Positions 8,917 to 28,634 of a stretch of DNA of 32,000 bases are shown here, one piece after another. The first letter of the stretch is position 1, and each line of letters opens with the position of its first letter. The notes below the pieces were generated by a model. It had not been told where the DNA came from. It ran no database searches and saw only the letters and a list, made by a program, of their open reading frames with translations. The translations under genes were made by a program, and so were the position numbers. The stretch lies in contig AP031373.1 in the NCBI GenBank assembly GCA_042850255.1, positions 210,001-242,000 on the forward strand, in the 5' to 3' direction. Source of the stretch: Nanobdellota archaeon (GTDB taxonomy: Archaea; Nanobdellota; Nanobdellia; Nanobdellales; Nanobdellaceae).

Positions 8917-11703
8917 TTAGAATAATTTAAAAATATCTATTAAGATTCTTATATACATGTTACTTAATGTTGTTATCATTCTAGATAATAAAGGAGGAGA
9001 ATAAATATTTTTAGATTCTAATAAATTATTGTTTTTTGTATAATTTACTACCAGATTATATTTATAACTTATTATATTGTTACCATTTGAACTTACATTA
9101 ATAAATAACTGTGATTCTCCAATATTAATAGGAATAACAGATAACTTTAATATAATAGATTGGTTACCTCCTATATTTGGAATAAATATAGATATATTAT
9201 TATTTATTTTTATTCCATAATAATACAAAAGAACATTGCTTCCATTATATCCAATATTTATTTTCAAATTTGATATATTATTTCCACTATTATTTAAATA
9301 AATTATTAAATTACTTGGTATCCCTAAATTAAAGGATAAATTTTTTGTTACAATATACATACTTCCATTATAATATTTATATGTAGATAATGATAAATTG
9401 TAAGAATTATTTACTTTACTATCATTTATATATTCAATAACTGGGATTAAAATGTTATAATTCAAATTATACTGAGAACATAAATTATAATAATTACAAG
9501 CTTCTATTGTTATGTTTGTATAATTTGAATATGGAATATTTATATTTATATTATTTTGTCCATAAAATATATAAACAAGATTATTTTCATTTATTTTAAT
9601 AAATTCTATATTATTTTTTGGACCTATATAAATATTAAGATCTTCATAATTCGGGGTAATATTTTCAAATATATATTTTAATTCTGGATAAGTTATTGTA
9701 TAGTTTTTATATACTATTTCTTTATATATATTAGGTATTTGTATATTTAATATTTCAGATTGACAATTATATAATCCAGCTAAAGATAAAGCGCATATTG
9801 TTATATTTGTATAATTATAATAAGGTAAGTTTATTATAGTTGAATATAAAAGTGTATTAGGACTATAATAATTTACTAATTCTCCATTTTCATATACAGT
9901 AATATTTAGAAGATTTAGAAGTGATGAAATACTAATATTTGCTATTATTGAAGAATTTGATATTGTTAAAGAATTAATTAATATAGTTGGAGGTAATAAT
10001 ATTCCGCCACCACTAACTACTTTAGTAGATATAGCTATATTTTGTGTAATATTTACTGTTATATTTTGAGAATCTATACATGTTCCATTATAACAAGTTT
10101 GTCCATAAATATAATAATAACCTGGAGAGGATATTATACAAGATAAATTAAAATCATTGAAAGTTCCTATAGATGAATAACAATAAGGAGTATTATTTAA
10201 AAATATTGTATAATTTTGTCCACATCCTTCAATATAAACATTTACCGAATTATTAGATTCATTAGCATTTATAGATACATTTTGTTCTATATTATAAGTA
10301 AATATTGTAGATGCTGTAAGTGCATTGATTGAAATATTATAAGAACCTGGAGGAACTGTTGGAGATGAATAAATAATTATTGGAATTGAACATGAAGTAC
10401 TATTGGTAATACAATAATTACCTTGAGGGAATGAACATGTAAATCCTGAAGGAGTATTACATGAAAATGTTACTGTTGTAGATGCACCTCCTGGATTATT
10501 TATATTTGCTGTTACTGCAATTAATACTGATCCTCCTGGACAAGAAGTATAAAAAGACTGATTTAAAGTTACAGATGTAACTGAAACTGCCGGTTGTATA
10601 GAAAATGAAGGCATAACACCATTTGGAGGATAAGATGCAATAGCCAAATATGATACTTGCGCAATAATTCCTTCATTATTATTAGAAAAATACCATGTTA
10701 TATATCCATTAGTAATTTGTGGATTAGAGTATGTTCCATTTATATAATTAATTCCATCCGTAAAATATGCATAAGAATTTGATATAGTAAACATCCATAC
10801 TTCTGGTGGTAAAGGAGAAGCCCCCTCTGGAACAGTTTCTGATAAGTATGCTGAAGTTTGATTTTCAACTTCTAAATTATAAGTACAATAGTTAGGATCA
10901 CATAATAATCCCACCATTTGTGGTGCTGGACTACCTGCGCTATCTCCAGAAGCAATACCTATACCAAACATATAATTAGTATAACTAGTTACATAAGGCT
11001 CGTATGTTACCAACTCGATCATAGAAAAGGGAAAACTTATCGTATAATCATATATTACATTATATTGCTGATATCTTGTAGTTACCGAAAAGGTTAAACC
11101 GTTATCTTGCGTAACAGACGCCCCATTAGGAATTATTATATATGGGGATAGTATTGTTCCATTAAAATTATCATAAAAATTAAATACATAATTTCCATTA
11201 TCATATATTCCATAATTTAGACATTGACTCATATTTGTATATCCTTCCTCATAACAGTACCAGTATGCACTTACTCCTGTATAAGGATAATATTGTTGAT
11301 AATAATTTTCACTTTGTGGTCCAACATACATATATATTGTTAAATTAGAATTAGCAGGTATTCCTGAAGGTATATTCACCCACCAAACATCACATAATGT
11401 ACCACTTATATTTTCTTGACCTTCAAACCATGAATATAATAAAGAATCTGTTGAATTAACAAAATATACATTAGATCCGTTTGAATTAATTAAGTTAAAT
11501 AATGTTTGATTATTTACATATGCAAAATTATTACCTAAATTTACATTTCCGTTACATATTGCTATATCTTGTTGGAATGGTGCTGGAGTAGGAATTGGTT
11601 GAGAATTTACTATGGTTATTTGATATGAACCTTGAGAAAATATTAAGTTATTTGTTAAAATGATTATTAAAGCTATAAAAAATATCCATAAAAATTTTCT
11701 CAT
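8917..11703 (-). CDS. large secreted surface glycoprotein candidate with DUF2341-like and LamG/concanavalin-like N-terminal region
   Basis: It has a signal peptide (MRKFLWIFFIALIIILTNNLIFSQG). A DUF2341-like signature follows (LLYSWFEGQEN...CDVWWVNIPSGIPANSNLTIYMYVGPQ), then YDNFNGTIL (LamG-like start). There are dozens of N-x-S/T sequons, many Cys and almost no Lys. Confidence 0.7.
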   Translation of the reverse strand: MRKFLWIFFIALIIILTNNLIFSQGSYQITIVNSQPIPTPAPFQQDIAICNGNVNLGNNFAYVNNQTLFNLINSNGSNVYFVNSTDSLLYSWFEGQENISGTLCDVWWVNIPSGIPANSNLTIYMYVGPQSENYYQQYYPYTGVSAYWYCYEEGYTNMSQCLNYGIYDNGNYVFNFYDNFNGTILSPYIIIPNGASVTQDNGLTFSVTTRYQQYNVIYDYTISFPFSMIELVTYEPYVTSYTNYMFGIGIASGDSAGSPAPQMVGLLCDPNYCTYNLEVENQTSAYLSETVPEGASPLPPEVWMFTISNSYAYFTDGINYINGTYSNPQITNGYITWYFSNNNEGIIAQVSYLAIASYPPNGVMPSFSIQPAVSVTSVTLNQSFYTSCPGGSVLIAVTANINNPGGASTTVTFSCNTPSGFTCSFPQGNYCITNSTSCSIPIIIYSSPTVPPGSYNISINALTASTIFTYNIEQNVSINANESNNSVNVYIEGCGQNYTIFLNNTPYCYSSIGTFNDFNLSCIISSPGYYYIYGQTCYNGTCIDSQNITVNITQNIAISTKVVSGGGILLPPTILINSLTISNSSIIANISISSLLNLLNITVYENGELVNYYSPNTLLYSTIINLPYYNYTNITICALSLAGLYNCQSEILNIQIPNIYKEIVYKNYTITYPELKYIFENITPNYEDLNIYIGPKNNIEFIKINENNLVYIFYGQNNININIPYSNYTNITIEACNYYNLCSQYNLNYNILIPVIEYINDSKVNNSYNLSLSTYKYYNGSMYIVTKNLSFNLGIPSNLIIYLNNSGNNISNLKINIGYNGSNVLLYYYGIKINNNISIFIPNIGGNQSIILKLSVIPINIGESQLFINVSSNGNNIISYKYNLVVNYTKNNNLLESKNIYSPPLLSRMITTLSNMYIRILIDIFKLF

Positions 11704-13866: not shown

Positions 13867-15804
13867 TTATTCTTCTACCTTTTCTTTATCTTTTTCCTTT
13901 CCTCCTCTTCTTCTAGATTCTACCAATATTGCTGCAATTATTATTATTGCCAATGCTACTAATATCCAGAATATTATTGCTTCGGATGGCAATGATATAG
14001 ATGTAACTGGAACTCCTGTTGATGTATATGTTTCATTTAATGAATACAATAATTCTCCATTTTGTGCATTTATTATATTTACATATACTGTTACATTACT
14101 ATTTTCTGCAGTTACATTTAATGGAATTTGTTCTGTATACATTCCTCCAATTTGTACTTGTTCTTCTTCTGGATATACCTCTCCACCTACTGCATATGCT
14201 TGTATTATTAAATTATATATTTGTGTTGAATTTGAAGATAATACTAAGTATATTGTTTTATTCTTTCCAATTGTTAATTGTTCATATCCAATTAATGATG
14301 CTGTAATTGGTTTATATACTGGTTGTGTTCCATTTACATATATATTGTATGTATATTGTTGTGTTATTCCATTATAATTGAATACAAATGTTATTGGATA
14401 ATATCCTGCTTCTAATCCTTCTGGTACATATATTACTACTGGCAATTGTGTAGGTGTGCTTGGTGATAATGTTATTGTTGATAATTGTTGAAATAGATTA
14501 AATTGTTGAGATTCTACTATTGGTGTTACTTCTATACTCATTGGTAAATTACTTTCTAATTCTAAGTATAATTCTATATATTCTCCAGGTTTTACATTAA
14601 ATGTATTTTGATATACATTTAATACATCTACTGGTTGGATATTTTGTTGATTTACTGCTACCGTATAATTATATTCATTAATTTCTACTCCATTTTCATA
14701 TAGATATAATACTATTGTATAATATCCTGGTGCCAATCCTACAGTATTTAATGGTAATGTTAATTCTACTTGTTGTTGTGGACTTACTAATTGAGAAGTT
14801 TCTAAATTATATATTAAATCTCCATATTGATCATATACTAATAATTGTGCTGTTGCATTTGCTGTTTGGTATCCGGGATTTTCCAATAATATATTTATAT
14901 TATATGTTGATGATTGTAATTTACTTAATAAATTGAAGTTTGGTGATATTGATATTACTTGTAATAATTCTCCATTTTCATTATTTGATACATAGAAAGA
15001 TTGTGTTGCATATTGTGTTAATTCCTCTCCATTGTTTAATACAACATTTAATTGTTCTGATACATACATTTGTCCTTGTACATTTTGGAAATAAGAACTT
15101 GGTATACCTACTGTTAATAAATTCTCTCCTGGTTGTAAATTAACATTTTCTTGTGTTTGATATATAATATTTCCTTGAGAATTGTATAATGTTAATGTTA
15201 ATGTTGATGATTGTATATTTGTTTCTGTATTTTGTAAATATACTATTGATTGTACATTTAATCCATATTCTTCTGCTTGTTGTTGTGATACAACTTCTGG
15301 TAATTGTACTATGGATAATGATAAATTATATGGCAAATATGTTATATTATACATTTCTTCTCCAGATACTATTTCTTCCTGTCCATTTGGGTATATTAAT
15401 GATATATTTGCTTGTACTGTAATATTATTTAATGTACTTACAAAACATACTCCATTACCACAACTCTCTACACTTTCATTTGCCAAAGCTAATAATTCTA
15501 CAGGATTTACTGATACTGTGTATATATCATTTCCTGTGCATACTTGTATTGGTTCATAATATTGGTATATTATACTTCCATTTGGCCCATATATATTAAA
15601 ATACAAATAGGACTCAAATGGTGTTTGATTTACTCCTAGTAATTTTACTATGAATGTTAGATTATTGCTAACGTAATTCGCTAATAATGTTGGAGTTTGC
15701 GGTTCTATTATTATTTCTTGTGACTTTACTGCTAATGCTGCTATTCCTAATGCAAAAAATAATGGTATTATTTTCTTAAATGTTGCTACTATTTTGTTAT
15801 CCAT
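13867..15804 (-). CDS. cell-surface (S-layer-like) protein with repeated beta-sandwich modules and a C-terminal TM anchor
   Basis: It has an N-terminal signal/TM (IIPLFFALGIAALAV). A motif of the type L-Y-N-x-x-G-x-I-I-Y recurs (FNIYGPNGSIIYQY, LTLYNSQGNIIYQT, LLVYDQYGDLIYNL, NIINAQNGELLYSL). The C-terminus has the TM IIFWILVALAIIIIAAILV followed by the basic tail RRRGGKEKDKEKVEE. Composition is Q/E/V/Y-rich and K-poor. Confidence 0.7.
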   Translation of the reverse strand: MDNKIVATFKKIIPLFFALGIAALAVKSQEIIIEPQTPTLLANYVSNNLTFIVKLLGVNQTPFESYLYFNIYGPNGSIIYQYYEPIQVCTGNDIYTVSVNPVELLALANESVESCGNGVCFVSTLNNITVQANISLIYPNGQEEIVSGEEMYNITYLPYNLSLSIVQLPEVVSQQQAEEYGLNVQSIVYLQNTETNIQSSTLTLTLYNSQGNIIYQTQENVNLQPGENLLTVGIPSSYFQNVQGQMYVSEQLNVVLNNGEELTQYATQSFYVSNNENGELLQVISISPNFNLLSKLQSSTYNINILLENPGYQTANATAQLLVYDQYGDLIYNLETSQLVSPQQQVELTLPLNTVGLAPGYYTIVLYLYENGVEINEYNYTVAVNQQNIQPVDVLNVYQNTFNVKPGEYIELYLELESNLPMSIEVTPIVESQQFNLFQQLSTITLSPSTPTQLPVVIYVPEGLEAGYYPITFVFNYNGITQQYTYNIYVNGTQPVYKPITASLIGYEQLTIGKNKTIYLVLSSNSTQIYNLIIQAYAVGGEVYPEEEQVQIGGMYTEQIPLNVTAENSNVTVYVNIINAQNGELLYSLNETYTSTGVPVTSISLPSEAIIFWILVALAIIIIAAILVESRRRGGKEKDKEKVEE

Positions 15805-15828: not shown

Positions 15829-16605
15829 TTAAATGTTACTACCCTTTATAAGGTATATGTCACTGTCACCTGGGATATATTTTAATATATCATTAATATC
15901 TACCTTGAATTTTTCGCTTATAAATTTGCCTATTTCTGAAGGCTTTTTATTTCCTGGCACTAAAATAATATAATTATTGAATTTATTTATAATATTTTCT
16001 GGAACTCCAGGATATATTTCATAATCTTTAAATCCTATAGCAATTTCTAACTTTACTTTTAAATAATTTTTATTACCATAAATCATAAAAGATCCTTTTT
16101 TAATATACATACCTGCAGGAACTTTCTTAGATACTTGTTCAGGATATACATAATATACATCTATTGAAGATAATCTATTTTTCCATGCTCTAGAATATGA
16201 ACCTACAAATTTTGCAGATTCATATATATCATTTTCTTTTGCATTTTGGCCATTTTTTAATATACCAAATGGAGATCCAATTATATCTGCATGAAATACT
16301 AGATCATTTTTCTCTAAATATTTTTTAATTAATATTTCATTACTATTAGCATCTGTTCCACATACTAATAAAAAATTATTTGATGTTATCATCCATCTAA
16401 ATTTTTCATACCATTTTTTATTTCTCTTCTTTTCTTCTTTCTTTTTTTCTATATTTATTTCTTCTTCTATATTCTTTAATTTTTCCTCATTCTCCTTTAT
16501 TAATTCCTCTATTCTTTTCTTTTTATTTTTTAATTCTTTAATTTTTTCATATAATTCATTTATATTTTCATATATACTTTTCCTAACATCAATTTTTATC
16601 TCCAT
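15829..16605 (-). CDS. NFACT-family protein, C-terminal half only (coiled coil + NFACT-R/DUF814; Rqc2/NEMF homolog fragment)
   Basis: A K/E-rich coiled coil is followed by KWYEKFRWMITSNNFLLVCGTDANSNEILIKKYLEKNDLVFHADIIGSPFGILK and YSRAWKNRLSSIDVYYVYPEQVSKKVPAGMYIKKGSFMIYG. This is the typical NFACT-R signature. Confidence 0.75.
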   Translation of the reverse strand: MEIKIDVRKSIYENINELYEKIKELKNKKKRIEELIKENEEKLKNIEEEINIEKKKEEKKRNKKWYEKFRWMITSNNFLLVCGTDANSNEILIKKYLEKNDLVFHADIIGSPFGILKNGQNAKENDIYESAKFVGSYSRAWKNRLSSIDVYYVYPEQVSKKVPAGMYIKKGSFMIYGNKNYLKVKLEIAIGFKDYEIYPGVPENIINKFNNYIILVPGNKKPSEIGKFISEKFKVDINDILKYIPGDSDIYLIKGSNI

Positions 16606-17416
16606 TTTTCCAACATATATTATAAAATAAACATTTTTTGCAATTTTCTTTATATACTTTTCCAGGATCTTTATTATTTTCTACCATATCCAATATTTTA
16701 TCCTTTATTTCCAATATTTTATCTATTTCCTTCTTATTTCTAAACTCTATTTCCTTTTTATAATTATCTTTTGCATATAACAAATATCCTTTTTCTATCT
16801 TATATTTTGGAAATTCATCTTTTAATAATAAATAATATGTATATAATTGAGTAATATGTTCCCTTCTAAAAAATCCTGATTTTATTTCATAAGGTATTAT
16901 AAATCCTTTATACATTTCTAATCTATCTACCCTTCCAATAATTCTATATTTTAATGATGTAACATCTAGTTCTGTCAATATTTTAGGTTCTAATTTATCC
17001 CATAATTCTATTCCATATAAATCATTATTTATCATAAAATCGTATACATTTTTTGCTCTTTCTTCTATATCCTTTATTACATAACTATATGATTTCATTT
17101 TTATTTCATTTATATCTAACTTTAAATCTTCTATATCTTCTTTAAAATTTTCTATTATATCTTCTATTATATCCATAACAAATTTATTATATAAATTTAG
17201 AATATATTCAAATCCCCTATTTTCCTTAATATTATATATTATTTCTCTTTCTTTTTCATTTATATTATCAAATATGGAATGAACTATAGATCCAAAAACC
17301 TTTTGTTCGGTAGTTTCCTCTTCATAACCTAAAACTCTCTTTAAATAAACTTTTCTAGGACAAAAAATATAATCAGTTATATCAGTTACCCTAACAAATT
17401 TACGATTAATATCCAC
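16589..17416 (-). CDS. cas4: Cas4-family (DUF83) PD-(D/E)XK nuclease with 4-Cys cluster, stand-alone
   Basis: It has an N-terminal Cys (YIFCPRKVYL), a RecB-type core (GRVDRL...IIPYEIKSG, i.e. D...ExK), QLYTYYLLL (QxxxY) and the C-terminal CKKCLFYNIC (C-x2-C-x5-C). Confidence 0.75.
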   Translation of the reverse strand: MDINRKFVRVTDITDYIFCPRKVYLKRVLGYEEETTEQKVFGSIVHSIFDNINEKEREIIYNIKENRGFEYILNLYNKFVMDIIEDIIENFKEDIEDLKLDINEIKMKSYSYVIKDIEERAKNVYDFMINNDLYGIELWDKLEPKILTELDVTSLKYRIIGRVDRLEMYKGFIIPYEIKSGFFRREHITQLYTYYLLLKDEFPKYKIEKGYLLYAKDNYKKEIEFRNKKEIDKILEIKDKILDMVENNKDPGKVYKENCKKCLFYNICWKNGDKN

Positions 17417-18922: not shown

Positions 18923-19513
18923 ATGGCATTTTATAATGTAATACTAAGTATATTAACTAATATAGGATTCTTTAATATAATATTACCTTTCCTACTTATA
19001 TATTCTATAATATATGGTTTACTTGCTAAATATCAATTAATAGGAAATCCTTATAAAGAAGATGCAGAAGGAAAAGCAACTAGAAGTTTAATATCAATGA
19101 TATCTGCTGCAGTAGGATTTTTGGTAGTAGGAGCTACAAATGTTGTTTTATCTATATTTAATTTAATTCCATATATTGTTTTATTTTTATTAACAGTATT
19201 TTTCTTATTGATTGCAATTGCTCCATTTGTAACAAATGAAAAGGGTATGAATTTACAAGGTAGAACTGGAAAAATATTATTGGGAGTATCAATAGTAATA
19301 TTCTTTATTGTAGTTGCATTTTCTTTAGGACTATTTAGTTATATAGCATCATTATCACATCATATATCAGTATCTTCATCATCTTTACAATATATAGAAC
19401 AAATAGTATACACAGTTTTAATACTGGGAGTACTATTTGGAGTAGTATACTGGGCTACAAAGCCTCCATCTAAGCAAAGTACAGGCCAACAAAGTCAATC
19501 TAATCAAAAATAA
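18923..19513 (+). CDS. 4-TM membrane protein, paralog 1 of a tandem triplet (unknown family)
   Basis: It has the conserved TM1 motif GFFNIILPFLLIYSIIYGLL, four predicted TM helices and the C-terminal W-A-T-K-P-P-S-K followed by a Q/S-rich tail. Confidence 0.6.
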   Translation: MAFYNVILSILTNIGFFNIILPFLLIYSIIYGLLAKYQLIGNPYKEDAEGKATRSLISMISAAVGFLVVGATNVVLSIFNLIPYIVLFLLTVFFLLIAIAPFVTNEKGMNLQGRTGKILLGVSIVIFFIVVAFSLGLFSYIASLSHHISVSSSSLQYIEQIVYTVLILGVLFGVVYWATKPPSKQSTGQQSQSNQK

Positions 19514-20082
19514 TGGTATATAATCTTACAAATATAATAACTAATGTAAATCTTACAAATACTTTTTACTCCTCTTTAACTCAATATGGTTTATTTGATG
19601 TAATTTTACCATTTTTATTAATATTTTCTCTTACATTTATGATAATAGAGTTATCTGGATTATTAAAAACTAGCAATGACGATGCAGTAGGAAGGAGATT
19701 AAGTGCTTTATTCTCTTTTTCATTTGCTCTATTAGCAATGGCAAATAAAAGTTTAATTAGTTGGTTATATTCTTTTATACCTCAAGCTTCGATATTAATA
19801 TTAGCATTCTTTTTATTGGCAATTGTAATGGGAATATCTGGAAAGGGAGTGCCAGGATATATAAGAGCTATATTGGGATTAATAGTAATTGGAATATTAC
19901 TTTGGTTGTCTATTAACGCACTAAAAATTGGAGGAAACGCTACACCAGCTACTGGCGCATTGTCATATGTATTAGATTACTTAATACAGTCGGGATTACT
20001 AGGAATATTAATAATAATACTAATATTAGTAATTGTAATGGCCTGGGCAGTAGGAGGTAAACAAGAACAAAATCAATCATAA
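19513..20082 (+). CDS. 4-TM membrane protein, paralog 2
   Basis: TM1 is GLFDVILPFLLIFSLTFMII. It has the same helix layout as paralog 1 and the C-terminal WAVGGKQEQNQS. Its start overlaps the previous stop (TAATG). Confidence 0.6.
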   Translation: MVYNLTNIITNVNLTNTFYSSLTQYGLFDVILPFLLIFSLTFMIIELSGLLKTSNDDAVGRRLSALFSFSFALLAMANKSLISWLYSFIPQASILILAFFLLAIVMGISGKGVPGYIRAILGLIVIGILLWLSINALKIGGNATPATGALSYVLDYLIQSGLLGILIIILILVIVMAWAVGGKQEQNQS

Positions 20083-20083
20083 A

Positions 20084-20752
20084 ATGGACCCAACATCTTT
20101 ATTATATACATTATTTTCCGAATATGGAGTATTTACAATAATTGCTCCATTTTTATTAATATTTTCCTTAACTTATGGTTTATTGAGAAAAACTAATTTA
20201 TTTGGAAGAGATAACCCAACAAAAGAAAAACTTTATGGTATAATATCGTTTGCTATTTCTTTCTATTATATATATAAATTAAGCGATGTAATATTTACTC
20301 AGGATTTCATATCCTTCTTCTTCTTTGAAGTATTAGTATTATTCTTCCTATTAATGGTTATTGCATTATTAGTAGCTATGGGAAAAGGTTTAGATATAGA
20401 AGTAAAAGATGATGAAAAATCTATATTTGAAAATTATAAGAAAACTGGACAAAATGCATTTGTAGGCTTCTTAGGTTTATTGGTATTATTTGCATTTATG
20501 TATGCATCTTCGTTTTCATTTACATCATTTGGAAATCAATCTATGGGTATTATTTCACAAATATTTACTATATTAATAGAGACAGGATTATTACCTATAA
20601 TCATAATTATAGGAATATTATTAGGTGTAATCTCTTGGGTTACTAGGCCTCCAAAGAAATCCAATGTTGGTAAAAAAGCTAAACTTTGGATGTTTACTCC
20701 AGAAGCTACATTAGAGGATATAGTTAAAGAATTTTCTAAACTGAATAAATAA
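20084..20752 (+). CDS. 4-TM membrane protein, paralog 3
   Basis: TM1 is GVFTIIAPFLLIFSLTYGLL. The C-terminal motif is WVTRPPKKSN, with an extra roughly 30-aa tail. Confidence 0.6.
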   Translation: MDPTSLLYTLFSEYGVFTIIAPFLLIFSLTYGLLRKTNLFGRDNPTKEKLYGIISFAISFYYIYKLSDVIFTQDFISFFFFEVLVLFFLLMVIALLVAMGKGLDIEVKDDEKSIFENYKKTGQNAFVGFLGLLVLFAFMYASSFSFTSFGNQSMGIISQIFTILIETGLLPIIIIIGILLGVISWVTRPPKKSNVGKKAKLWMFTPEATLEDIVKEFSKLNK

Positions 20753-20793: not shown

Positions 20794-21900
20794 ATGGTTG
20801 TATTTGTTACACATGATAAGGAGATAAAAGATATTGTAAAGTATATTGAACAAGGAGAAGATATAATAGTAACAGATAATAAGGGGAAATATTTAGGGAT
20901 ATTACAAAATGATAGAGCAATTAGGTATTTACATAGACCTGAAACCAAAATAGAAAAAATAATGATAAAATTGAAACCTTTAAAGAATTATGATATTATC
21001 GAAATTATTGAAAAAATTATAAATTCAAATTTAAGATCTGTAGTAATAAAAGAAGATGATAAAATAGAATTTGTTAATATTTTTGATATATTAAATAATA
21101 TAATAGAAGATAAAGATATATTAAAAAAATTAAATATTGAAGAAGTAATGAATCCTGTTTATACCATTGAAGAAAAAGAGAGTGTTAAAAAAGCAATAGG
21201 ATTAATGAAGGATAAAGGTATATCTAGGTTAGTAATTGTTAATGAAAAAGGAGAAGCTGTAGGAATATTATCATTATCAGATATAATTAGAAGCATATTA
21301 ATAGAAGATAATGAAAAAATAAGAACCCCAAAAGAAGAGTATTTTGATGTAGAAGTAAGATCTATAATGAGTAATAAGCTAATATTTATAAATAAAGGGG
21401 AAAGTATAGAAAATTTAATTAAATTAATGATAAATAACAAAGTATTTGCAATACCTGTATTAGATAAGGGAAAACCAATAGGTATAATAACTGCTAAAGA
21501 TATATTAATACATTATTTACAATATAAAAAGGAAAAAGTTTATAACTTAGTAGTTCATGGTGTTCCCTTAGATGAAATAGATGAAGGTTATATAAAAAAT
21601 AAATATGAAGAATTTTATAAAAAGTATAAAAATGTATTAGGAGAAAACATAAGATTAATATTACACGTTAAAAAAATAAATGAGGATATTAAGAATAAAA
21701 AAATATACTATCAAATAAAAGCAAAATTAATAACTGATAAAGGAAAATTTAATGTAGATGAACATGGATATGATTTTTATTCTACAATAAGAGATATATT
21801 TGAAATATTATCAAATGAAGCAGAGAAAGTAAAACATAAAAATGAGAGAGAATATATGATGGAAAGTATGTTTAAAAATGATATAATAAAATACATATAA
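20794..21900 (+). CDS. four-CBS-domain protein with C-terminal HPF/RaiA(S30AE)-like domain
   Basis: CBS signatures include GISRLVIVNEKGEAVGILSLSDIIRS and VFAIPVLDKGKPIGIITAKDILIH, plus two weaker N-terminal CBS units. The C-terminal roughly 115 aa (from VYNLVVHGVPLDEIDEGYIKNKYEEFYKKY ... IRLILHVKK ... YYQIKAKLITDKGKFNVDEHGYDFYSTIRDIFEILSNEAEKVKHKNER) follow the beta-alpha-beta-beta-beta-alpha residue pattern of E. coli HPF as I recall it. The CBS part is secure; the HPF-like part is about 0.55. Confidence 0.75.
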   Translation: MVVFVTHDKEIKDIVKYIEQGEDIIVTDNKGKYLGILQNDRAIRYLHRPETKIEKIMIKLKPLKNYDIIEIIEKIINSNLRSVVIKEDDKIEFVNIFDILNNIIEDKDILKKLNIEEVMNPVYTIEEKESVKKAIGLMKDKGISRLVIVNEKGEAVGILSLSDIIRSILIEDNEKIRTPKEEYFDVEVRSIMSNKLIFINKGESIENLIKLMINNKVFAIPVLDKGKPIGIITAKDILIHYLQYKKEKVYNLVVHGVPLDEIDEGYIKNKYEEFYKKYKNVLGENIRLILHVKKINEDIKNKKIYYQIKAKLITDKGKFNVDEHGYDFYSTIRDIFEILSNEAEKVKHKNEREYMMESMFKNDIIKYI

Positions 21901-21902
21901 TA

Positions 21903-22523
21903 ATGATAATAGTACCTGGAGATTTTGTTAAAACAAAAGACGAAAATGTATATGAAAATAATGGAGAATATCATTCAAAATATATAGGATTATTAGAGGA
22001 AAGTAAAAATAAAATAACAAAATTATTTGGATATTATATACCAAAACTAAACGATATAGTAATAGGAAAAGTAATAGATGTATTACCTATAGGATGGTTA
22101 ATAGATATAAATTCTCCATATTTAGGATCCTTATTATTAAAAGATATGAATATGGAAAATGTAGATCCAAATGATTTATATACATATGAAGATTATATTT
22201 TATGCCAAATAATAAAAATAACAAAAAATAAAATAATAAATTTGGGAATAAAGAAAAAAGAAAAACTAAATGATGGATTAATAATAGATATAGATCCTGT
22301 AAAAGTACCTAGAATAATAGGAAAAAATTCTTCTATGTTAAATATGTTAAAAGAATTATTGAAAGTTAAAATAATTGTTGGACAAAATGGGAGGATATAT
22401 ATAAATGGAGATGAGGTAAATGTATTAAGAACAGTAAATGCTATAAAATTTATTGAGGAAAATTCTTATAAAAAAGGTTTGACTGAAAAGGTTAAAGAGA
22501 TGATTGAGAAAAATATAATATGA
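21903..22523 (+). CDS. rrp4: exosome RNA-binding cap subunit Rrp4 (S1 + KH)
   Basis: The S1-like segment is IVIGKVIDVLPIGWLIDINSPYLGSLLL. The KH segment is VPRIIGKNSSMLNMLKELLKVKIIVGQNGRIYING. It lies directly upstream of, and overlapping, rrp41. Confidence 0.8.
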   Translation: MIIVPGDFVKTKDENVYENNGEYHSKYIGLLEESKNKITKLFGYYIPKLNDIVIGKVIDVLPIGWLIDINSPYLGSLLLKDMNMENVDPNDLYTYEDYILCQIIKITKNKIINLGIKKKEKLNDGLIIDIDPVKVPRIIGKNSSMLNMLKELLKVKIIVGQNGRIYINGDEVNVLRTVNAIKFIEENSYKKGLTEKVKEMIEKNII

Positions 22524-23263
22524 GATTTGACGGAAGAGAATATAATCAAATAAGAAAAATAGATATAAAGTTAAATGTAATAGAAAATGCAAAAGGATCT
22601 GCAATATTTTCATTTGGAGATACGGTTGCATTAGCTGCAGTATATGGACCAAAACCTTCAAAGATGTCTATAGATTATGATAAGGCATTTTTAAGAGTTA
22701 GATATAATATGCTAACATTTTCTGTTCCAGAAAGGAAAAAACCCGTACCTGGAAGAAGAGAAATAGAATTATCTGAGGTAATAAAAAGAGCGTTAGAACC
22801 TGCATTATTTTTGGAAGAATTACCTGGAAGTATTATTGATATATATGTAGAAATATTAAATGCTGATGCGGGAACAAGAACTGCAAGTATCAATGCTTCA
22901 TCTCTAGCATTAGCATTAGCAGGAATTCCAATGAAAGATTTAGTTACTGCAGTTGCTGTAGGTAAAATTGGACAAAGAATTGTAGTAGATTTAAATAAAA
23001 ATGAAGAAGATTATGACTCAGAAAAGTTAAAAAATGATCCTGAAAAGAAAAAATATATAGAATATTATGGAGAAGGAAGAGCCACAGATATACCTGTCGC
23101 AGTAATACCTTCTGAAAAAAGATTTACCTCTATACAATTAGATGGAGAAATATCTAAGAATGAATTAAGAGAAGCATTGACTCTAGGTTTAGAAAAATGT
23201 ATAGAAATAAGGAATATAATGAAAAAACATTTATTGGAATATTTTTCTATAAATAAATTATAA
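22520..23263 (+). CDS. rrp41: exosome RNase PH-like catalytic subunit Rrp41
   Basis: It has RFDGREYNQIRKI, GSAIFSFGDTVALAAVYGP, ADAGTRTASINASSLALALAGIP and DIPVAV. It is 247 aa. Confidence 0.85.
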   Translation: MRFDGREYNQIRKIDIKLNVIENAKGSAIFSFGDTVALAAVYGPKPSKMSIDYDKAFLRVRYNMLTFSVPERKKPVPGRREIELSEVIKRALEPALFLEELPGSIIDIYVEILNADAGTRTASINASSLALALAGIPMKDLVTAVAVGKIGQRIVVDLNKNEEDYDSEKLKNDPEKKKYIEYYGEGRATDIPVAVIPSEKRFTSIQLDGEISKNELREALTLGLEKCIEIRNIMKKHLLEYFSINKL

Positions 23264-23314
23264 AATTTTTAATTAAACAAAAATTTTTAAATACCAGAAA
23301 ACTTAACCAATAAT

Positions 23315-24343
23315 ATGAAATCTTTATTTGGATTTGGAAAACCTAAAAATGATTATAATAATATTAGAGAAGGATATATAAAAATTATAGACGAAACAGA
23401 AAAAGAATATTATAAAAAATTGAAAGAAATAGTAAATACTTTGGAAAAAATAAATAAAGATATGAAAAAAGCAAAGGATCCAAATGAATTAATAGAAATG
23501 TTTAAGAAGCATAAGTGGAGAATAAATGCTAGAGGTTGGCAAATTAGATTTGGATTCGAAAAAATTCAAAAAGCAATAAATGAATTAGAAAGAATAAAAA
23601 GCTCTTTAAATCAAAATGATCCATTAATATATGAAATTGATAGAAATATAAATAGACTTAGATCTCGCAATGAACAATTTGCAAGATTGGAAGAAAATAT
23701 AAAAAAATTATTTGTTATTTTAGATAGGGGTATTAATATTAATCCAAATGAAATGGTCGGTATACTTGAGAATATAAAAAATGAAGCAATTATGTTGGAA
23801 AGGTTAGAAACTTCTGGAGATCTTCTACTTAGAAAAAAGGATAAAAAACTAAGAGAAACTACTGAAAAACTTATAAAAACTACCAGGAACTTAGCATATG
23901 TTATACACACCATGTTAACTAGAAATCCATCATTAACAATTGAAAAGAATATAATAGGAAAAACTAATAAATTGCAAAAACTAATAAAAATTTTAGATGA
24001 TATAAAGAATTCCATAAAGGATATTTCAAAATATATAAATAATCAGGAAATATTAAAAGATTTAAATAGTATAGGAACAGAAGTTGATATTATAAAACGA
24101 TCTATCGACAATATATACAGAAATTATAAAAATATTCCAAATTTAAATGATCAATTAAAAAGTATTATAAATATCACCAAAAAAATATCGAATATTATAG
24201 ATAAAGAATTAATTCCAAAAATTGAAGAATATAAAGGTGGCTATGATATAATAGATAAAATAAATAATGAGATAAAAAAACCTCTTAATAACATAGAAAA
24301 AGAAATAAATTTAATTATTAGAGTTTATTCTAAGGAGTCGTAA
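23315..24343 (+). CDS. soluble long-helical (coiled-coil) protein, member of a 3-gene paralogous cluster
   Basis: It has no TM segment and is K/E/N/I-rich with heptad-like sequence. The N-terminus is MKSLFGFGKPK. The segment QKLIKILDDIKNSIKDISKYI is shared with the next two genes. Confidence 0.6.
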   Translation: MKSLFGFGKPKNDYNNIREGYIKIIDETEKEYYKKLKEIVNTLEKINKDMKKAKDPNELIEMFKKHKWRINARGWQIRFGFEKIQKAINELERIKSSLNQNDPLIYEIDRNINRLRSRNEQFARLEENIKKLFVILDRGININPNEMVGILENIKNEAIMLERLETSGDLLLRKKDKKLRETTEKLIKTTRNLAYVIHTMLTRNPSLTIEKNIIGKTNKLQKLIKILDDIKNSIKDISKYINNQEILKDLNSIGTEVDIIKRSIDNIYRNYKNIPNLNDQLKSIINITKKISNIIDKELIPKIEEYKGGYDIIDKINNEIKKPLNNIEKEINLIIRVYSKES

Positions 24344-24403
24344 TCCCTTATTTTTATTACCAATTTTAAAACTTTATAATTTACAAGATTTTTTATATTA
24401 ATT

Positions 24404-25666
24404 ATGAATAAGATTAGATTATTATATTTATATATATTATTACTTCCTCTATTAAATATTATATTTAGTCAATCAAATAACACATCTTTAGGAACTGGTA
24501 CCGTATTAAATCCTGTAAATCTATTAAATTTTAACATAGGCAATATAAGTAATAATAATTTTATAATTGGTGTATTAAAATGGTATGCCCCAATACTATA
24601 CAATTTAGCAGGATCTCCTTCAAATTTTTTATTATATTTAATCGGTATAATGGCTATTATATTTTTTACAATTCGTTTTTTTATAAGAGATTTAGATAGA
24701 GCTTCTGGATTTTTTATTTTCATCTTTTTTATCGCTATTATACATTTCATTTTTACATTTCTACCGGGACTTTTAATAATTGGGGGTATAATAGTATTAT
24801 TTTTAATAGCTCTATTTTCTAGGTTTTTAGAATGGACTCATAATCAGACAAGATTTATTAGAAGAGCTTTTAGAAAAATGAAGAATACAGAATTCAGATA
24901 TCTTTTTTCAAGATTATATCAACCAATGAATTCTTATAGATATTGGTTGTCAAATAATTATAAAAGAATAGATTTGATAGAAAAAAATATCGATAATAAT
25001 ATAATACCATTAGAAAAAAATATTCGAAAATTACCAAAAAATATAAAGGATAAAGATACAAATAGAGCATCTAGAGAATTAATAAAAATTTTAGATAATA
25101 TTAAAAGAGAACATAAAAAAATAGATAAAGAATTTAGGCAAATTATTTCAAATATCCAGAAAGGAACAAATATCCGTAATTCAAAAGATGTTATTAGATT
25201 AACAGATATGAATATTATAAATAGATCAAAAAGATTAAGAAATAAAATAAAAAAGACTACCGGAAAAATTAAAAATTATATAACAAAATTAAAGCATTTA
25301 GAAAAAAGATACCCACATATGTCTCCTTTTATAGAAAGTATAGTAGGGTCACTAGTAATAATACATAATAACCTTGGAAATATGTACAATATTTTAAATT
25401 ATACAGAATCTTTTGAAAATAATATTTTAAATCAATTTACTCAATATGCAAAATTTATAGTACAACAAGAAGAAATAGCAAGAAGGATTAATCGAAAATC
25501 TTATAATTTACAAAAACAGGCAACAAATGTATATAAAAATACAAGAAACTTAAGAATAAATAATTTTCCAAAAATAGGAAATGCGCCAGTAAGTAACTTG
25601 GGATCGCCTTTAATAAAACCACTTAATATGAATATTACAAAAGGTTCTATGTCAGGAAAGATATAA
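24404..25666 (+). CDS. membrane-anchored long-helical protein (signal peptide + 3 TM + cytoplasmic helical tail), paralog
   Basis: It has a signal peptide (LLYLYILLLPLLNIIFSQS), an external GTGTVLNP motif, three TM helices and a roughly 270-aa basic helical tail containing RELIKILDNIKREHKKIDKEF. Confidence 0.6.
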   Translation: MNKIRLLYLYILLLPLLNIIFSQSNNTSLGTGTVLNPVNLLNFNIGNISNNNFIIGVLKWYAPILYNLAGSPSNFLLYLIGIMAIIFFTIRFFIRDLDRASGFFIFIFFIAIIHFIFTFLPGLLIIGGIIVLFLIALFSRFLEWTHNQTRFIRRAFRKMKNTEFRYLFSRLYQPMNSYRYWLSNNYKRIDLIEKNIDNNIIPLEKNIRKLPKNIKDKDTNRASRELIKILDNIKREHKKIDKEFRQIISNIQKGTNIRNSKDVIRLTDMNIINRSKRLRNKIKKTTGKIKNYITKLKHLEKRYPHMSPFIESIVGSLVIIHNNLGNMYNILNYTESFENNILNQFTQYAKFIVQQEEIARRINRKSYNLQKQATNVYKNTRNLRINNFPKIGNAPVSNLGSPLIKPLNMNITKGSMSGKI

Positions 25667-25728
25667 TACCTATTATTTAGCAACTACATAAATAATATTT
25701 AAAAATTTGAACGGACATATTTTTAGCA

Positions 25729-26802
25729 ATGAGTGGTATGATAATTGCAATGTTTCAAGGATCCAGTAGTCAAGGATCTGGCAGTGTACTTAATCCAACA
25801 AGTACAATCCCGCTTAGTAATCCTAATGTTGATTTTTCTTCTATTCAAAATTCTATAAATAGTATAATAGGAAAAGGATATTTTATTTTATACAACCAAA
25901 TAGGTGTTCCTCCATTATTAAGCTTTATATTAGTAACAATTATGATAACCGTACTAATATATATGTTCGGATCGTTATTTTTTAGAAGAGTATTGAATCA
26001 AGGACAATTATTTGAAGATCATATAAGAAGACCTTTAATAATATTGTCAATTGCAATTGGTCTTTTTGGTGCATATACAATTGGATATTTAGTATATATA
26101 TTCCAATACATATTATATGTAATCGCAGGCATATTTTTTGCAATGATAATAATCCTAGGAATTAGTATGGGAATGGGAACCTATAGAGCTGGAAGAGCAA
26201 TGATGCATGCTGTTGCTACAAAGGAATATGGATATGCTAGAACTAGATATCAAGCTGAAAGTTTAATGTATGATGCAAGAAGAGATCTAGCTAGAGTTAA
26301 ATATGATGTAAAAGCTTTAGAAAGATTATTAAAGAAAAAGCATGGGAAAATAATACCAACAGGAGAATTTAGAGAATATAGGAAAATATTGAAAGATATA
26401 GAGAAACACTCTATAGAATTCTTAGATGGCGTCCAGGCTACAATTAATAGTTATATATGGACTCCACTGAGGAACCAACAACAAACTCCTCAAACTTTAC
26501 AACAGCTGGATGCTTCACTAGCAAGTATTGTAAACGCAGCCAACAATTATTTAAATGGTGTTCAACAGAGCTTTAATAATATACAAACCTTTTATAATAA
26601 TTTAATTCATCAACAGCAAAACACACCAGGTCAACAACAAGCTGTACAATTGGTTCATTTCATTCATACAGAAATATTTAAATCAAAAAACAAAATAAAC
26701 GCTAAAATAAATGATGTTAATGCACTTATACAAGATTGCATTAATCTAATTAATCACCTTGGACACCATTCAACTGCTGGAACTCTAAATCGTATAAATT
26801 AA
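25729..26802 (+). CDS. membrane-anchored long-helical protein (3 TM + Q-rich helical tail), paralog
   Basis: It has an N-terminal GSGSVLNP motif, three TM helices and a tail containing EYRKILKDIEKHSIEFLDG and Q-rich helices (QQQTPQTLQQLDASLASIVNAANNYLNGVQQSFNNIQ). Confidence 0.6.
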   Translation: MSGMIIAMFQGSSSQGSGSVLNPTSTIPLSNPNVDFSSIQNSINSIIGKGYFILYNQIGVPPLLSFILVTIMITVLIYMFGSLFFRRVLNQGQLFEDHIRRPLIILSIAIGLFGAYTIGYLVYIFQYILYVIAGIFFAMIIILGISMGMGTYRAGRAMMHAVATKEYGYARTRYQAESLMYDARRDLARVKYDVKALERLLKKKHGKIIPTGEFREYRKILKDIEKHSIEFLDGVQATINSYIWTPLRNQQQTPQTLQQLDASLASIVNAANNYLNGVQQSFNNIQTFYNNLIHQQQNTPGQQQAVQLVHFIHTEIFKSKNKINAKINDVNALIQDCINLINHLGHHSTAGTLNRIN

Positions 26803-26806
26803 AAGT

Positions 26807-27967
26807 TTATTTTTCTTCAATAAATTTTTTTATTGTTAAACTTTCTGCATAATCATCTATATCTAATGTAATTATATACCCTATTGATACTTCATGTAAT
26901 CTATGTCCAGCTCTCCCAACTCTTTGTACTAATCTAGCAACCTGTCTAGGAGAATTATATTGTATTACTGCATCTACATATCCTATATCAATTCCTAATT
27001 CTAACGAAGATGTTGCAACAATTGCCTTTAATTTTCCTTCCTTAAACAATTTTTCATTTCTTTCCCTTACTTCTCTAGACAAAGAACTATGATGAATCTC
27101 TATTGGATAATTCGGTATCCACATTTTAAATCTAGAAACAATCAATTCTGCCATTTCCCTTGTATTCACGAATATTAATACAGATTTATGTTTATCCATA
27201 ATTTCCTTCATTTTTCTTAAACTCCAAGCAATCTTTGGACTCCAATTAAATTTCCTAGCTAATTCCAAATCTTCATTTGTTATTTCTGGGTACAATACTT
27301 TTATATCATATCTCTTTTCTGCATACCAATATGCAATATCATAATTCCTATATCCGAATAAAAACTTTGCAGCTTCATCTAAATCTCCAATTGTTGCAGA
27401 TAAACCTATTCTTTGAAATTCTCCAGAATAGTTTACTAATCTTTCTAATCCTAAAGATAATTGTATTCCTCTTTTTTCATTTAATAATTCATGTACTTCA
27501 TCAACAATCACAAATCTTATAGTTTTTAATTGTTCCCTTAATCTTTTTCCTAAAAATAATATTTGAAACGTTTCTGGAGTTGTAATTAAAAATTCTACAG
27601 GTTTTTTAGATAATCTAGATCTTTCCTTTTCTTCAGTATCTCCATGTCTTATTGCAGTAGTAATATTTAAATTATCTCCCCACCATTTTATCCTATCTAA
27701 TAAATCCCTATTCAATGCTCTTAGAGGAGTAATATATAAACCCAATAATTTATTTTCTATTCCTTCTTTTTCTTTTATATCTAAAATTTTTGAAAAAACT
27801 GGTAATATGCTTGCCTCACTTTTTCCTGACCCTGTCGGCGCCACAATTAATGTATTTTTACCTTCCAATACTTTTGGTATTGCTAATTTTTGTATAGGAT
27901 TAAAATCTTTAAATCTTGAATAAAATAAATCCAATATTTCTTTCCTTAATTTTATTTTATCCTTCAT
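26807..27967 (-). CDS. lhr: Lhr-like superfamily 2 helicase, RecA-core only (386 aa)
   Basis: It has motif I APTGSGKSEA, Ia YITPLRALNRD, II DEVH, III SAT and VI QRVGRAGH. It ends shortly after motif VI. Confidence 0.8.
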   Translation of the reverse strand: MKDKIKLRKEILDLFYSRFKDFNPIQKLAIPKVLEGKNTLIVAPTGSGKSEASILPVFSKILDIKEKEGIENKLLGLYITPLRALNRDLLDRIKWWGDNLNITTAIRHGDTEEKERSRLSKKPVEFLITTPETFQILFLGKRLREQLKTIRFVIVDEVHELLNEKRGIQLSLGLERLVNYSGEFQRIGLSATIGDLDEAAKFLFGYRNYDIAYWYAEKRYDIKVLYPEITNEDLELARKFNWSPKIAWSLRKMKEIMDKHKSVLIFVNTREMAELIVSRFKMWIPNYPIEIHHSSLSREVRERNEKLFKEGKLKAIVATSSLELGIDIGYVDAVIQYNSPRQVARLVQRVGRAGHRLHEVSIGYIITLDIDDYAESLTIKKFIEEK

Positions 27968-28634
27968 TTTTTATTTCCTTTTCTTCAATTAATATGCCAT
28001 CTAATGTATATACATCATATCTTTCAATTCCCTTTGCAATTGGACCTTGAAATTCTCCAACTTCCCATAAACCTGCTAGATCAGAAAATGTAGGTAAAAA
28101 TATTATTATATCATTATCTCTATATCCAATTACAAATACTTTTTCATATATACTTTCTCCTATTGATGTTGTAATACTTTTTGCAAAATGATGATGTCCT
28201 AATACATAATATTCCCCTTTTAATTTTGTTTTTAAATGACCATGAGTAAATACTATATCCTTTATTTTCAATGCTTTTAATACCTTTACATTATTTACAT
28301 ACGGTATTAATTCTTCAATATCTCCATCATGGTTTCCCTTTACTATATATACTTTTCTAAAAATCTGAGATATTTCATTAATAAAATATGGAATATCTGA
28401 CAATTCGCTAAAAGATGTCTTTGGAATATTATGTTTTAAATCCCCATCAATTACTAAATATTTTGTATTATATTTTTCTTTTATTTTTTTTATTTTTTTA
28501 ATATAATAATCTACCTGAGATGGTATATTTATCCCATTTAATGATAATTCTTTTTCTATACCAATATGTAAATCTGAAATAGCTAAAATTTTATTATAAA
28601 AAATTAATCCTTCTGTTCCTGTAAATTTAAGCAT
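27957..28634 (-). CDS. binuclear metallophosphoesterase (COG1407-type, Lhr-associated MPE-like)
   Basis: Motifs are ISDLHIG, IDGDLKHN, VKGNHD, FTHGH and LGHHH. It overlaps the helicase gene by 11 nt. Confidence 0.8.
   Translation of the reverse strand: MLKFTGTEGLIFYNKILAISDLHIGIEKELSLNGINIPSQVDYYIKKIKKIKEKYNTKYLVIDGDLKHNIPKTSFSELSDIPYFINEISQIFRKVYIVKGNHDGDIEELIPYVNNVKVLKALKIKDIVFTHGHLKTKLKGEYYVLGHHHFAKSITTSIGESIYEKVFVIGYRDNDIIIFLPTFSDLAGLWEVGEFQGPIAKGIERYDVYTLDGILIEEKEIKNEG

Follow-up and report, generated by a model that had tools for sequence, protein, structure and literature searches.

EzrA-type proteins are membrane-anchored, spectrin-like helical-repeat regulators of bacterial division, and ZorA, the membrane motor subunit of the anti-phage system Zorya, carries a long intracellular helical tail. 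In the 32,000-nucleotide (nt) stretch of DNA analysed here, hereafter the window (positions 210,001 to 242,000 of contig AP031373.1, assembly GCA_042850255.1; GC content ~23%), three consecutive genes, which we call W1, W2 and W3, encode long helical proteins that invite comparison with both. Their products are identical to YN1_2700 (W1), YN1_2710 (W2) and YN1_2730 (W3) of 'Nanoarchaeota archaeon' YN1, an obligate ectosymbiont on Sulfurisphaera ohwakuensis that grows at pH 2-3 and attaches by an organelle made up of cone, portal and filaments (PMC11420986). In these genes YN1 has its version of a lineage-specific hypervariable island in the Nanopusillaceae (Nanobdellales), and the main feature of the locus is that it is hypervariable and recombining, yet fixed in position across the family. 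Our candidate for what the island encodes, to which we would assign a probability of roughly 0.45, is a membrane-anchored, diversifying cytoplasmic adaptor or scaffold.

That hypothetical envelope proteins of Nanoarchaeota vary fast is already known: the Nanoarchaeota on a single host cell have been reported to be clonal, with their hypothetical surface proteins enriched in non-synonymous single-nucleotide polymorphisms (SNPs) (PMC6142677). The 'hypothetical external' proteins of Jarett et al. (2018; PMC6142677) resemble those of the island in coming from the same phylum and in the elevated non-synonymous variation of envelope hypotheticals, but that category is built on a single N-terminal transmembrane (TM) helix, and the locus, the family, its polarity and the swapping of tails are not described there. 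Nor was a description of the family, its fixed position, its conserved-outside/variable-inside polarity or its tail swapping found in the rest of the literature searched. The polarity is unusual, as the outside is conserved and the inside variable, the opposite of what one would usually expect of surface-variation loci.

Other described systems match the island in part. Like EzrA, its membrane proteins would have an N-terminal membrane anchor and then, in the cytoplasm, a long stack of antiparallel helical bundles; one family member has a weak Pfam EzrA match (2.5e-6), and W1 in Foldseek comes closest to spectrin repeats, though not significantly (E = 0.25, TM-score 0.17-0.19). However, EzrA is conserved and has one TM helix, whereas the island family has three to five TM helices, an outside segment and hypervariable tails, and W1, W2 and W3 gave no Pfam match to the EzrA profile. 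An analogy with ZorA, drawn from general knowledge, may lie in a few TM helices followed by a cytoplasmic helical tail of variable length and in a variable island, but PADLOC returned no ZorA or ZorB match and the island is without a partner stator gene or effector genes. With contact-dependent inhibition (CDI) and Rhs toxins and with the Ids proteins of Proteus, the locus has in common a conserved N-terminal module, a C-terminal part swapped at sharp breakpoints and small variable accessory genes alongside; unlike in those systems, what varies is a helical bundle of low complexity that is predicted to be cytoplasmic and has no toxin or enzymatic domain.

Layout of the locus

An initial annotation of the window had singled out three consecutive plus-strand open reading frames (ORFs) of 342, 420 and 357 amino acids (aa), lying directly after the exosome genes rrp4 and rrp41, as uncharacterised, long-helical and membrane-associated proteins. 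That description stands, and all the peptides it quoted are found in ORFs of the window. The island and its borders are laid out as follows.

21903-22523: rrp4, upstream of rrp41
22520-23263 (+): rrp41 (RNase PH; Pfam RNase_PH, 1.9e-34), the conserved gene that bounds the island on the left
23284-23293 (+): TATA-like box TTTTTAAATA, ~26 nt before the W1 ATG; judged from the sequence, a possible own promoter for a leaderless mRNA
23315-24343 (+): W1 (YN1_2700), soluble all-helical bundle protein (ORF, AlphaFold), 342 aa, net charge +18, strain-specific orphan
23979-24006 (+): DNA for KLIKILDDIK in W1, the segment common to W2 (repeat D3, 25/28 nt)
24404-25666 (+): W2 (YN1_2710), membrane protein, 420 aa
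24404-24475 (+): W2 signal peptide, aa 1-24
24476-24604 (+): W2 uncharged outside segment, aa 25-67
24605-24838 (+): W2 TM1, basic loop and TM2/TM3 hairpin, aa 68-145
24839-25663 (+): W2 basic (+37) helical tail, aa 146-420
25077-25104 (+): DNA for ELIKILDNIK in the W2 tail (copy in related locus L004, 23/24 nt identical)
25729-26802 (+): W3 (YN1_2730), membrane protein without signal peptide, 357 aa
25729-25914 (+): W3 outside N-tail, aa 1-62
25915-26187 (+): W3 TM block, aa 63-153
26188-26799 (+): W3 Q/N-rich helical tail, aa 154-357
26807-27967 (-): convergent helicase gene (DEAD/Helicase_C; Pfam, 5e-40), the conserved gene that bounds the island on the right

A TATA-like box stands ~26-28 nt before the ATG of each island gene and an oligo-T run follows W1, a pattern that would fit separate leaderless transcripts but is weak evidence for them, because such A/T strings are common in DNA of 23% GC. 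W1 and W2 lie in the same frame; a read-through fusion of the two was considered and set aside, as the spacer holds an extra stop (24377-24379) and W2 opens with a signal peptide. The window gave no sign of mobile-element borders, with no tRNA gene, no Rfam match and no convincing flanking repeats. The numbering of the source skips YN1_2720, and the gap between W2 and W3 measures only 62 nt (25667-25728), with no tRNA or Rfam RNA in it.

An island fixed in position

Related loci were fetched from genomes and metagenomes with Rrp41 as the query; ~25 Nanopusillaceae loci were sampled, and the set for motif scans comprised 38 loci, the window and 37 related ones. Every Nanopusillaceae locus with both anchor genes has one to three family membrane genes between rrp41 and the helicase gene, a placement that W2 and W3 satisfy within the window. 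The borders are well conserved, with Rrp41 72-86% identical to that of loci L001-L005 and L008 and the helicase 82-89% identical in L001-L004. L008, a more distant hot-spring locus in which Rrp41 is 72% identical, is arranged alike, down to the three small membrane genes and the CBS-domain gene upstream. Archaeal loci outside the Nanobdellota have rrp42 and L37ae after rrp41 instead, these distant loci keeping the order rrp4-rrp41-rrp42-L37ae (L006, 1582-2361; L007, 1354-2148), whereas rrp42 does not follow rrp41 in any Nanopusillaceae locus (22520-23315 in the window), a statement that covers the canonical position only. Because rrp42 and L37ae occupy the place after rrp41 outside the group, the word 'inserted', which the initial annotation used of the three genes, is apt.

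The family comprises at least five subtypes (A, B, C, an L001/L004 type and a W3/P0004 type) on a constant plan. A signal peptide is optional; the uncharged outside segment, ~45 aa long and closed by P-x-G-Y...Q-x-G-x-P, is followed by TM1, a basic loop and the TM2/TM3 hairpin, after which a basic juxtamembrane helix leads into a long tail that is charged and amphipathic-helical. W1 has no such N-terminal module (N-module). When 1.84 billion representative proteins were scanned in full with HMMER, eight matched at E<=1e-3, namely the three query rows (W2, W3 and P0004), four relatives (P0005-P0008) and one spurious MlaD-like protein; all five real relatives, P0004-P0008, have the same architecture. 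One of them, P0007 (579 aa; L009, 5138-6877, GCA_053994055.1), is not beside rrp41 and adjoins genes for a glycosyltransferase, a UDP-GlcNAc epimerase and a polysaccharide synthase.

Soluble helical genes occur sporadically in the island, and an unrelated pair sits on the minus strand in L003, L026 and L027. Remnants of L003-type soluble genes, 60-67 aa long, lie in L016 (1068-1250 and 1795-1998) and L017 (1316-1498 and 2043-2246), and the subtype C gene of L026 is divided between two ORFs in different frames, one for the N-module and one, of 320 aa, for the helical part (6011-6880 and 6909-7871); these remnants and the split gene are signs of decay and turnover inside the island. There is also a second variable slot just past the helicase gene, holding a soluble, K/E-rich helical ORF of one family (39% identity between L002 and L003) in L002 (5819-6358), L003 (15653-16282), L025 (11267-11977), L026 (9279-9824) and L027 (13653-14282). 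In the window this slot is empty, the helicase gene at 26807-27967 abutting 27957-28634.

Hypervariability, recombination and selection

Between the window and L001-L004 the flanking proteins are 60-89% identical, whereas W1 and W2 find no match among the island proteins of those loci and W3 is at most 23% identical to any of them. Within subtypes the variation is concentrated in one part of the protein: identity amounts to 75-94% over the signal peptide, the outside segment and the TM region and to 18-60%, with indels, over the tails. Ratios of non-synonymous to synonymous substitution rates (dN/dS), estimated by the Nei-Gojobori method (NG86) and by maximum likelihood (ML), rise in the same direction.

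Flanks (rrp41, helicase): NG86 0.06-0.13; ML 0.02-0.07
N-modules: NG86 0.55-0.75; ML 0.37-0.41
Tails: NG86 0.94-1.36; ML 0.54-0.63

Subtype B tails stand out, with NG86 ratios of 1.0-2.1, several pairs reaching bootstrap P<=0.01, and an ML ratio of 0.54. These values suggest a 10-25-fold relaxation in the tails relative to the flanks, and what is claimed is strongly relaxed or diversifying evolution; since NG86 and ML disagree on an omega above 1, the claim extends to relaxation and not to proven positive selection.

On clear evidence, the tails are also exchanged by recombination with sharp breakpoints. L002 and L019 are 97-100% identical in nucleotide sequence. Exactly where the subtype B tail is encoded, identity drops to 61-81% and indels appear; patches of the subtype A tail stand at 81-84%, and in the helicase gene the match is again 94-100%. 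Within one gene, dS is 0.23 in the tail and 0.009 in the N-module. A diversity-generating retroelement, which was considered as a source of the variation, was rejected: no locus holds a second copy of tail DNA that could serve as template, the window holds no reverse transcriptase, substitutions in the tails affect every one of the four bases (A 19%, G 32%, C 36% and T 21% of sites) and are not specific to adenine, and indels are present.

Island ORFs of 290-585 codons are intact in more than 25 loci of DNA of 23% GC, and the amphipathic-helix periodicity is kept in every tail (z = 4.6-10.9), unlike in globular controls. Long intact ORFs and kept tail periodicity are evidence of selection for a protein.

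The membrane proteins W2 and W3

W2 and W3 begin with a short, near-uncharged outside segment (GTGTVLNP / GSGSVLNP), followed by TM1, a basic loop and a hydrophobic block of ~50 residues that we read as a probable TM2/TM3 hairpin; in hydropathy plots the hydrophobic blocks match what is expected for TM1 plus such a hairpin. A strongly basic juxtamembrane stretch leads into a tail of 274 aa in W2 and 202 aa in W3. Only W2 has a signal peptide, whose ...LNIIFSQSNNT resembles the ...NIYSQSNNY of subtype A; W3 and P0004 have none and begin where mature W2 would.

The two proteins are 28% identical across 231 aa in BLASTP. Their N-terminal alignment reaches Smith-Waterman scores of 99-117 with z ~6 (6.2 for the N-module), which 0 of 1000 shuffles reach although the shuffles keep the composition of each topological segment, and the signal is located in the N-terminal 150-160 residues. 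W2 and W3 are thus real, though very diverged, paralogues, probably two old lineages of one membrane family. W3 has relatives of varying closeness, P0004 at 46% identity, L001 (E = 1e-9), L008 (E = 1e-11) and P0005-P0008, whereas a word-indexed homologue search with W2 returned only W2 itself; a segment of the W2 tail is homologous to an island gene of L004 (78% over 65 nt; BLASTP E = 0.014).

The tails are predicted to be cytoplasmic, and three observations support this: the positive-inside charge distribution, with 1 K/R residue in the outside segments, 3-4 in loop 1 and 5-9 in the first 30 residues of the tail; the contrast, in an acidophile, between tails that are ~35% charged and outside segments that are almost uncharged; and the odd number of TM helices, which is preserved in subtype C members by two extra helices. 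W1 and the tails show strong amphipathic alpha-helical periodicity (z = 6-10 against shuffles, with Rrp41 at -1.2 and the helicase at 1.5 as controls), and the AlphaFold models are all-helical. On the membrane pair, the initial annotation has therefore held up well: it had proposed two related proteins with a common N-terminal outside motif, three TM helices and then a helical tail of 200-270 aa, cytoplasmic by charge.

W1 and the segment common to W1 and W2

W1 is of a different kind. It has no TM segment by hydropathy, and its single-sequence AlphaFold model (predicted local distance difference test score, pLDDT, 76.9) consists of ten helices of 20-38 residues each. A word-indexed search of 5.8 billion proteins returned only W1 itself, and no homologue is present in any of the 37 related loci, which is why we take W1 to be a strain-specific accessory and not a conserved component of a system.

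Its relation to the tails is correspondingly slight. BLASTP gives E = 0.076 against W2 and E = 2 against W3, and hhalign a probability of 11% against the tails. With the family hidden Markov model (HMM) W1 reaches 11.4 bits, more than its residue or heptad-class shuffles do, but reversed W1 still scores 8.5 bits, another soluble protein used as a decoy scores 29.8 bits reversed against 18.2 forward, and Smith-Waterman scores with unrelated helical decoys go up to 113-120, where W1 and the W2 tail give 108. Because reversed sequences and helical decoys attain the same scores, W1 was rejected as a full paralogue of the tails.

What remains is local. LI[KR]ILD occurs only three times in the 132,787 ORF residues of the 38 loci, at residue 223 of W1, residue 226 of W2 and residue 258 of the single island gene of L004. 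The DNA for LIKILD[DN]IK is identical in W1 and W2 at 25 of 28 nt, better than in 300 of 300 codon shuffles, and the copy in L004, the closest related locus, is identical to that of W2 at 23 of 24 nt; the W3 version is looser. Most likely, as far as these matches indicate, W1 arose from a partial duplication or recombination of tail-coding DNA. The 'paralogous triad' of the initial annotation is thereby reduced to the pair W2 and W3, and the helical segment that it had seen in all three proteins is firm between W1 and W2, where it is an island-specific motif, and loose in W3. Its suggestion to look at conservation and synteny divides in the same way, with the membrane genes kept in position across the family and W1 missing from the related loci.

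Searches against known families

The ESCRT-III core, of ~200-240 aa, consists of a long hairpin of helices 1 and 2, helices 3 and 4 packed on that hairpin and a fifth helix after them, and CHMP/Snf7 proteins begin with the pattern M-x-x-LFG-x-x-K. W1, a helical protein that could act on membranes in a similar way, begins with MKSLFGFGKPK, and the initial annotation had noted a likeness to CHMP subunits and, loosely, to the ESCRT-III/PspA hairpin, which it called weak and possibly due to chance. The string is there, but it is 11 residues long and modelled as disordered. Pfam gave no match to Snf7 (PF03357) or PspA/IM30 (PF04012) in W1-W3 at E<=1 and lists neither for any member of the 13-sequence family alignment; phmmer found 0 matches of W1 to PDB sequences at E<=1; and a Foldseek search of the W1 model against 350,542 PDB chains gave none at E<=0.001, the best 50 matches being spectrin repeats, tektins and designed helical bundles (TM-scores 0.13-0.28), with no ESCRT-III, PspA or Vipp1 chain among them. 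A search of viral folds in BFVD was likewise without a match at E<=0.001. With ten helices in 342 aa, W1 is unlike the ESCRT-III core in length and helix number, nor is it conserved even within the Nanopusillaceae, and we rejected the identification. Nor does the island as a whole look like a remodelling system of the ESCRT-III/PspA type.

The family has no counterpart among the curated entries of Pfam, NCBIfam, PHROGs and PADLOC. PHROGs, NCBIfam and PADLOC gave coiled-coil noise only (tail fibre, SpiroCoCo, Rad50, LmuB/JetC), and the PADLOC defence models, Zorya included, only matches of 13-20 bits to coiled-coil segments of LmuB, JetC and DruC. Against PDB sequences the family profile matched 2ch7, a hairpin of a methyl-accepting chemotaxis protein (MCP), at E = 1.8e-6, with heptad repeat 1 (HR1) of coronavirus spike, ApoA-IV, syntaxin and designed bundles scoring similarly; MCPsignal is not among the Pfam families listed for family members. 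Since MCP hairpins and unrelated long-helix proteins score alike, these matches probably reflect generic long-helix similarity.

What the island might encode

In the reading that we prefer, a membrane-anchored adaptor or scaffold that diversifies on its cytoplasmic side, the conserved outside/TM module would dock the protein in the envelope and the fast-evolving, recombination-swapped helical bundle on the inner face would serve as adaptor or scaffold. The tail sequence would be free, or driven, to change, and its partners would be variable in turn, either soluble helical proteins of the island such as W1 or foreign factors derived from the host or from viruses. Several points weigh against this reading. 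The role is deduced from architecture and evolutionary pattern; the ML dN/dS of the tails is below 1, so that relaxed constraint and recombination could suffice without an arms race; W1 is without homologues, and a conserved partnership between W1 and the tails cannot be general; the structure model of W3 is of low confidence (pLDDT 55); and W2 scores only 12.8 bits against the leave-one-out family HMM, an unrelated small membrane protein scoring 16.5 bits.

It is tempting to see in the variable tails the sensors or specificity determinants of a conflict or compatibility module, acting in anti-virus defence, in abortive infection through a membrane effector or in strain/host compatibility at the cytoplasmic bridge, whether as a membrane-anchored intracellular antenna of the ZorA kind or as a polymorphic identity locus. 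An island between conserved core genes that differs among genomes in gene content and copy number would suit such a module, as would allelic replacement of tails with sharp breakpoints between near-identical genomes, the NG86 ratios of 1.0-2.1 in subtype B tails, the gain, decay and loss of accessory soluble genes, and the clonality and SNP-rich surface hypotheticals already mentioned for Nanoarchaeota (PMC6142677). The weak SMC-like coiled-coil matches in PADLOC, however, included no ZorA and no effector, Pfam scans found no enzymatic or toxin domain, and the ML ratios stay below 1; on balance we regard a conflict module as unlikely, though worth keeping in view.

Another idea, which we consider distinctly less probable than not and indeed hold at long odds, places the island at the host-symbiont interface of the Nanobdellales as a specificity module, with tail alleles setting host or strain compatibility. 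The outside/TM module would then sit at the attachment site, and the swapped tails and W1-like partners would meet factors of the host or of rival strains by way of a cytoplasmic bridge. The Nanobdellota in culture (YN1, YN4 and N. aerobiophila) use a large organelle to attach to hosts that are very specific (PMC11420986, PMC11104419, bioRxiv 10.64898/2026.06.04.730037), and if the specificity module were real it would provide a first molecular entry to that organelle and to the narrow host range. A lineage-restricted, always-present family with a recombined inner tail is in any case a concrete candidate for host-, strain- or virus-related specificity, and even if its function proves mundane the locus provides a clean marker of recombination and strain diversity in reduced genomes.

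Alternatively, the proteins may be part of the organelle itself, supplying its membrane anchors and the helical subunits from which the cytoplasmic gate, or the 6.6-8 nm filaments running through the portal, would be built. Cryo-tomography has shown the cone/portal/filament organelle in YN1, and YN4 and N. aerobiophila build it too; its proteins still await assignment (PMC11420986, PMC11104419, bioRxiv 10.64898/2026.06.04.730037), the family is confined to this lineage, its membrane anchors carry long cytoplasmic helices and soluble helical-bundle proteins are found in the island too, and 13-19 kb upstream the window has an S-layer (surface-layer) candidate as well as type IV pilus-like genes. 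Yet the cone is outside the membrane, where only ~45 aa of the family proteins would be; a structural monomer should be conserved, whereas the tails are the least conserved sequences of the region; and W1 is strain-specific, whereas the organelle is common to several genera. An organelle component therefore seems improbable to us.

We judge equally improbable the view that the island holds no more than unconstrained leftovers, lineage-specific ORFs drifting under weak selection in a symbiont of small population size, with tails that have no role. Tail ratios near 1 by NG86, very low sequence conservation, gene remnants and a split gene in some loci, and the want of close relatives of W1 and W2 would all be expected of such ORFs. 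Drift does not sit well, however, with ORFs intact in more than 25 loci despite a stop probability of ~9% per random codon at this composition, with purifying selection on the N-module (75-94% identity, ML omega 0.37-0.41), with amphipathic periodicity kept in every tail or with the constant presence of at least one family copy.

The place of the genes suggests a further possibility, a tether in which the product of the gene in the rrp42 slot would be anchored in the membrane and, by its basic tail, keep the Rrp4/Rrp41 exosome or its RNA substrates there. In all loci, L008 included, the gene follows rrp41 on the same strand by 36-51 nt, rrp42 is absent from its canonical position and the tails are mostly net basic (+37 in W2). 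But a TATA-like box stands before each gene and an oligo-T run after W1, hypervariability is not expected in a partner of the highly conserved exosome, the tails of subtype B have a net acidic character, and the L009 member lies in a glycosyltransferase context, all of which makes an exosome tether very unlikely. The model of the initial annotation, in which W1 is an ESCRT-III/PspA-like polymer recruited by two membrane anchors for remodelling or division, can be given hardly any credence, as the all-helical build of W1 and the likeness of its first residues to the CHMP/Snf7 pattern known in general are outweighed by the empty Pfam, PDB sequence and Foldseek searches, by ten helices in 342 aa where the core has ~220 aa and a long hairpin of helices 1 and 2, and by the absence of W1 from the related genomes (37 loci), which tells against a polymer with anchors as such.

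Neighbouring genes

Upstream of the exosome genes, three tandem small polytopic membrane paralogues on the plus strand (18923-19513, 19513-20082 and 20084-20752) are followed by a CBS-domain gene (20794-21900). The third of these membrane proteins is 28% identical to the first (E = 3e-11), and no known family was matched. The trio and the CBS-domain gene are kept upstream of rrp4/rrp41 in L001, L003, L004, L005 and L008. The region from TM1 through the basic loop to TM2 aligns between the N-modules of the island and the trio in hhalign (probability 79%, E = 1.6e-5), and a distant relationship between the two is possible.

Locus L006 (DAOWAC010000104.1) is titled as a metagenome-assembled genome of a Chloroflexota bacterium, yet carries the archaeal exosome operon rrp4-rrp41-rrp42-L37ae; the contig is probably misbinned.

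Farther upstream in the window, type IV pilus-like genes encode a T2SSE ATPase (4325-5872, +) and a T2SSF platform protein (5869-6702, +), and a protein of 928 aa with a weak DUF2341 match (8917-11703, -) is probably the S-layer candidate YN1_2560 named in PMC11420986. An ORF of 645 aa at 13867-15804 (-) has no Pfam match; together with 16589-17416 (-) it belongs to a region with a solo Cas4 gene beside an NFACT-like gene, and the solo Cas4 of the window agrees with the one reported for YN1 (PMC11420986).

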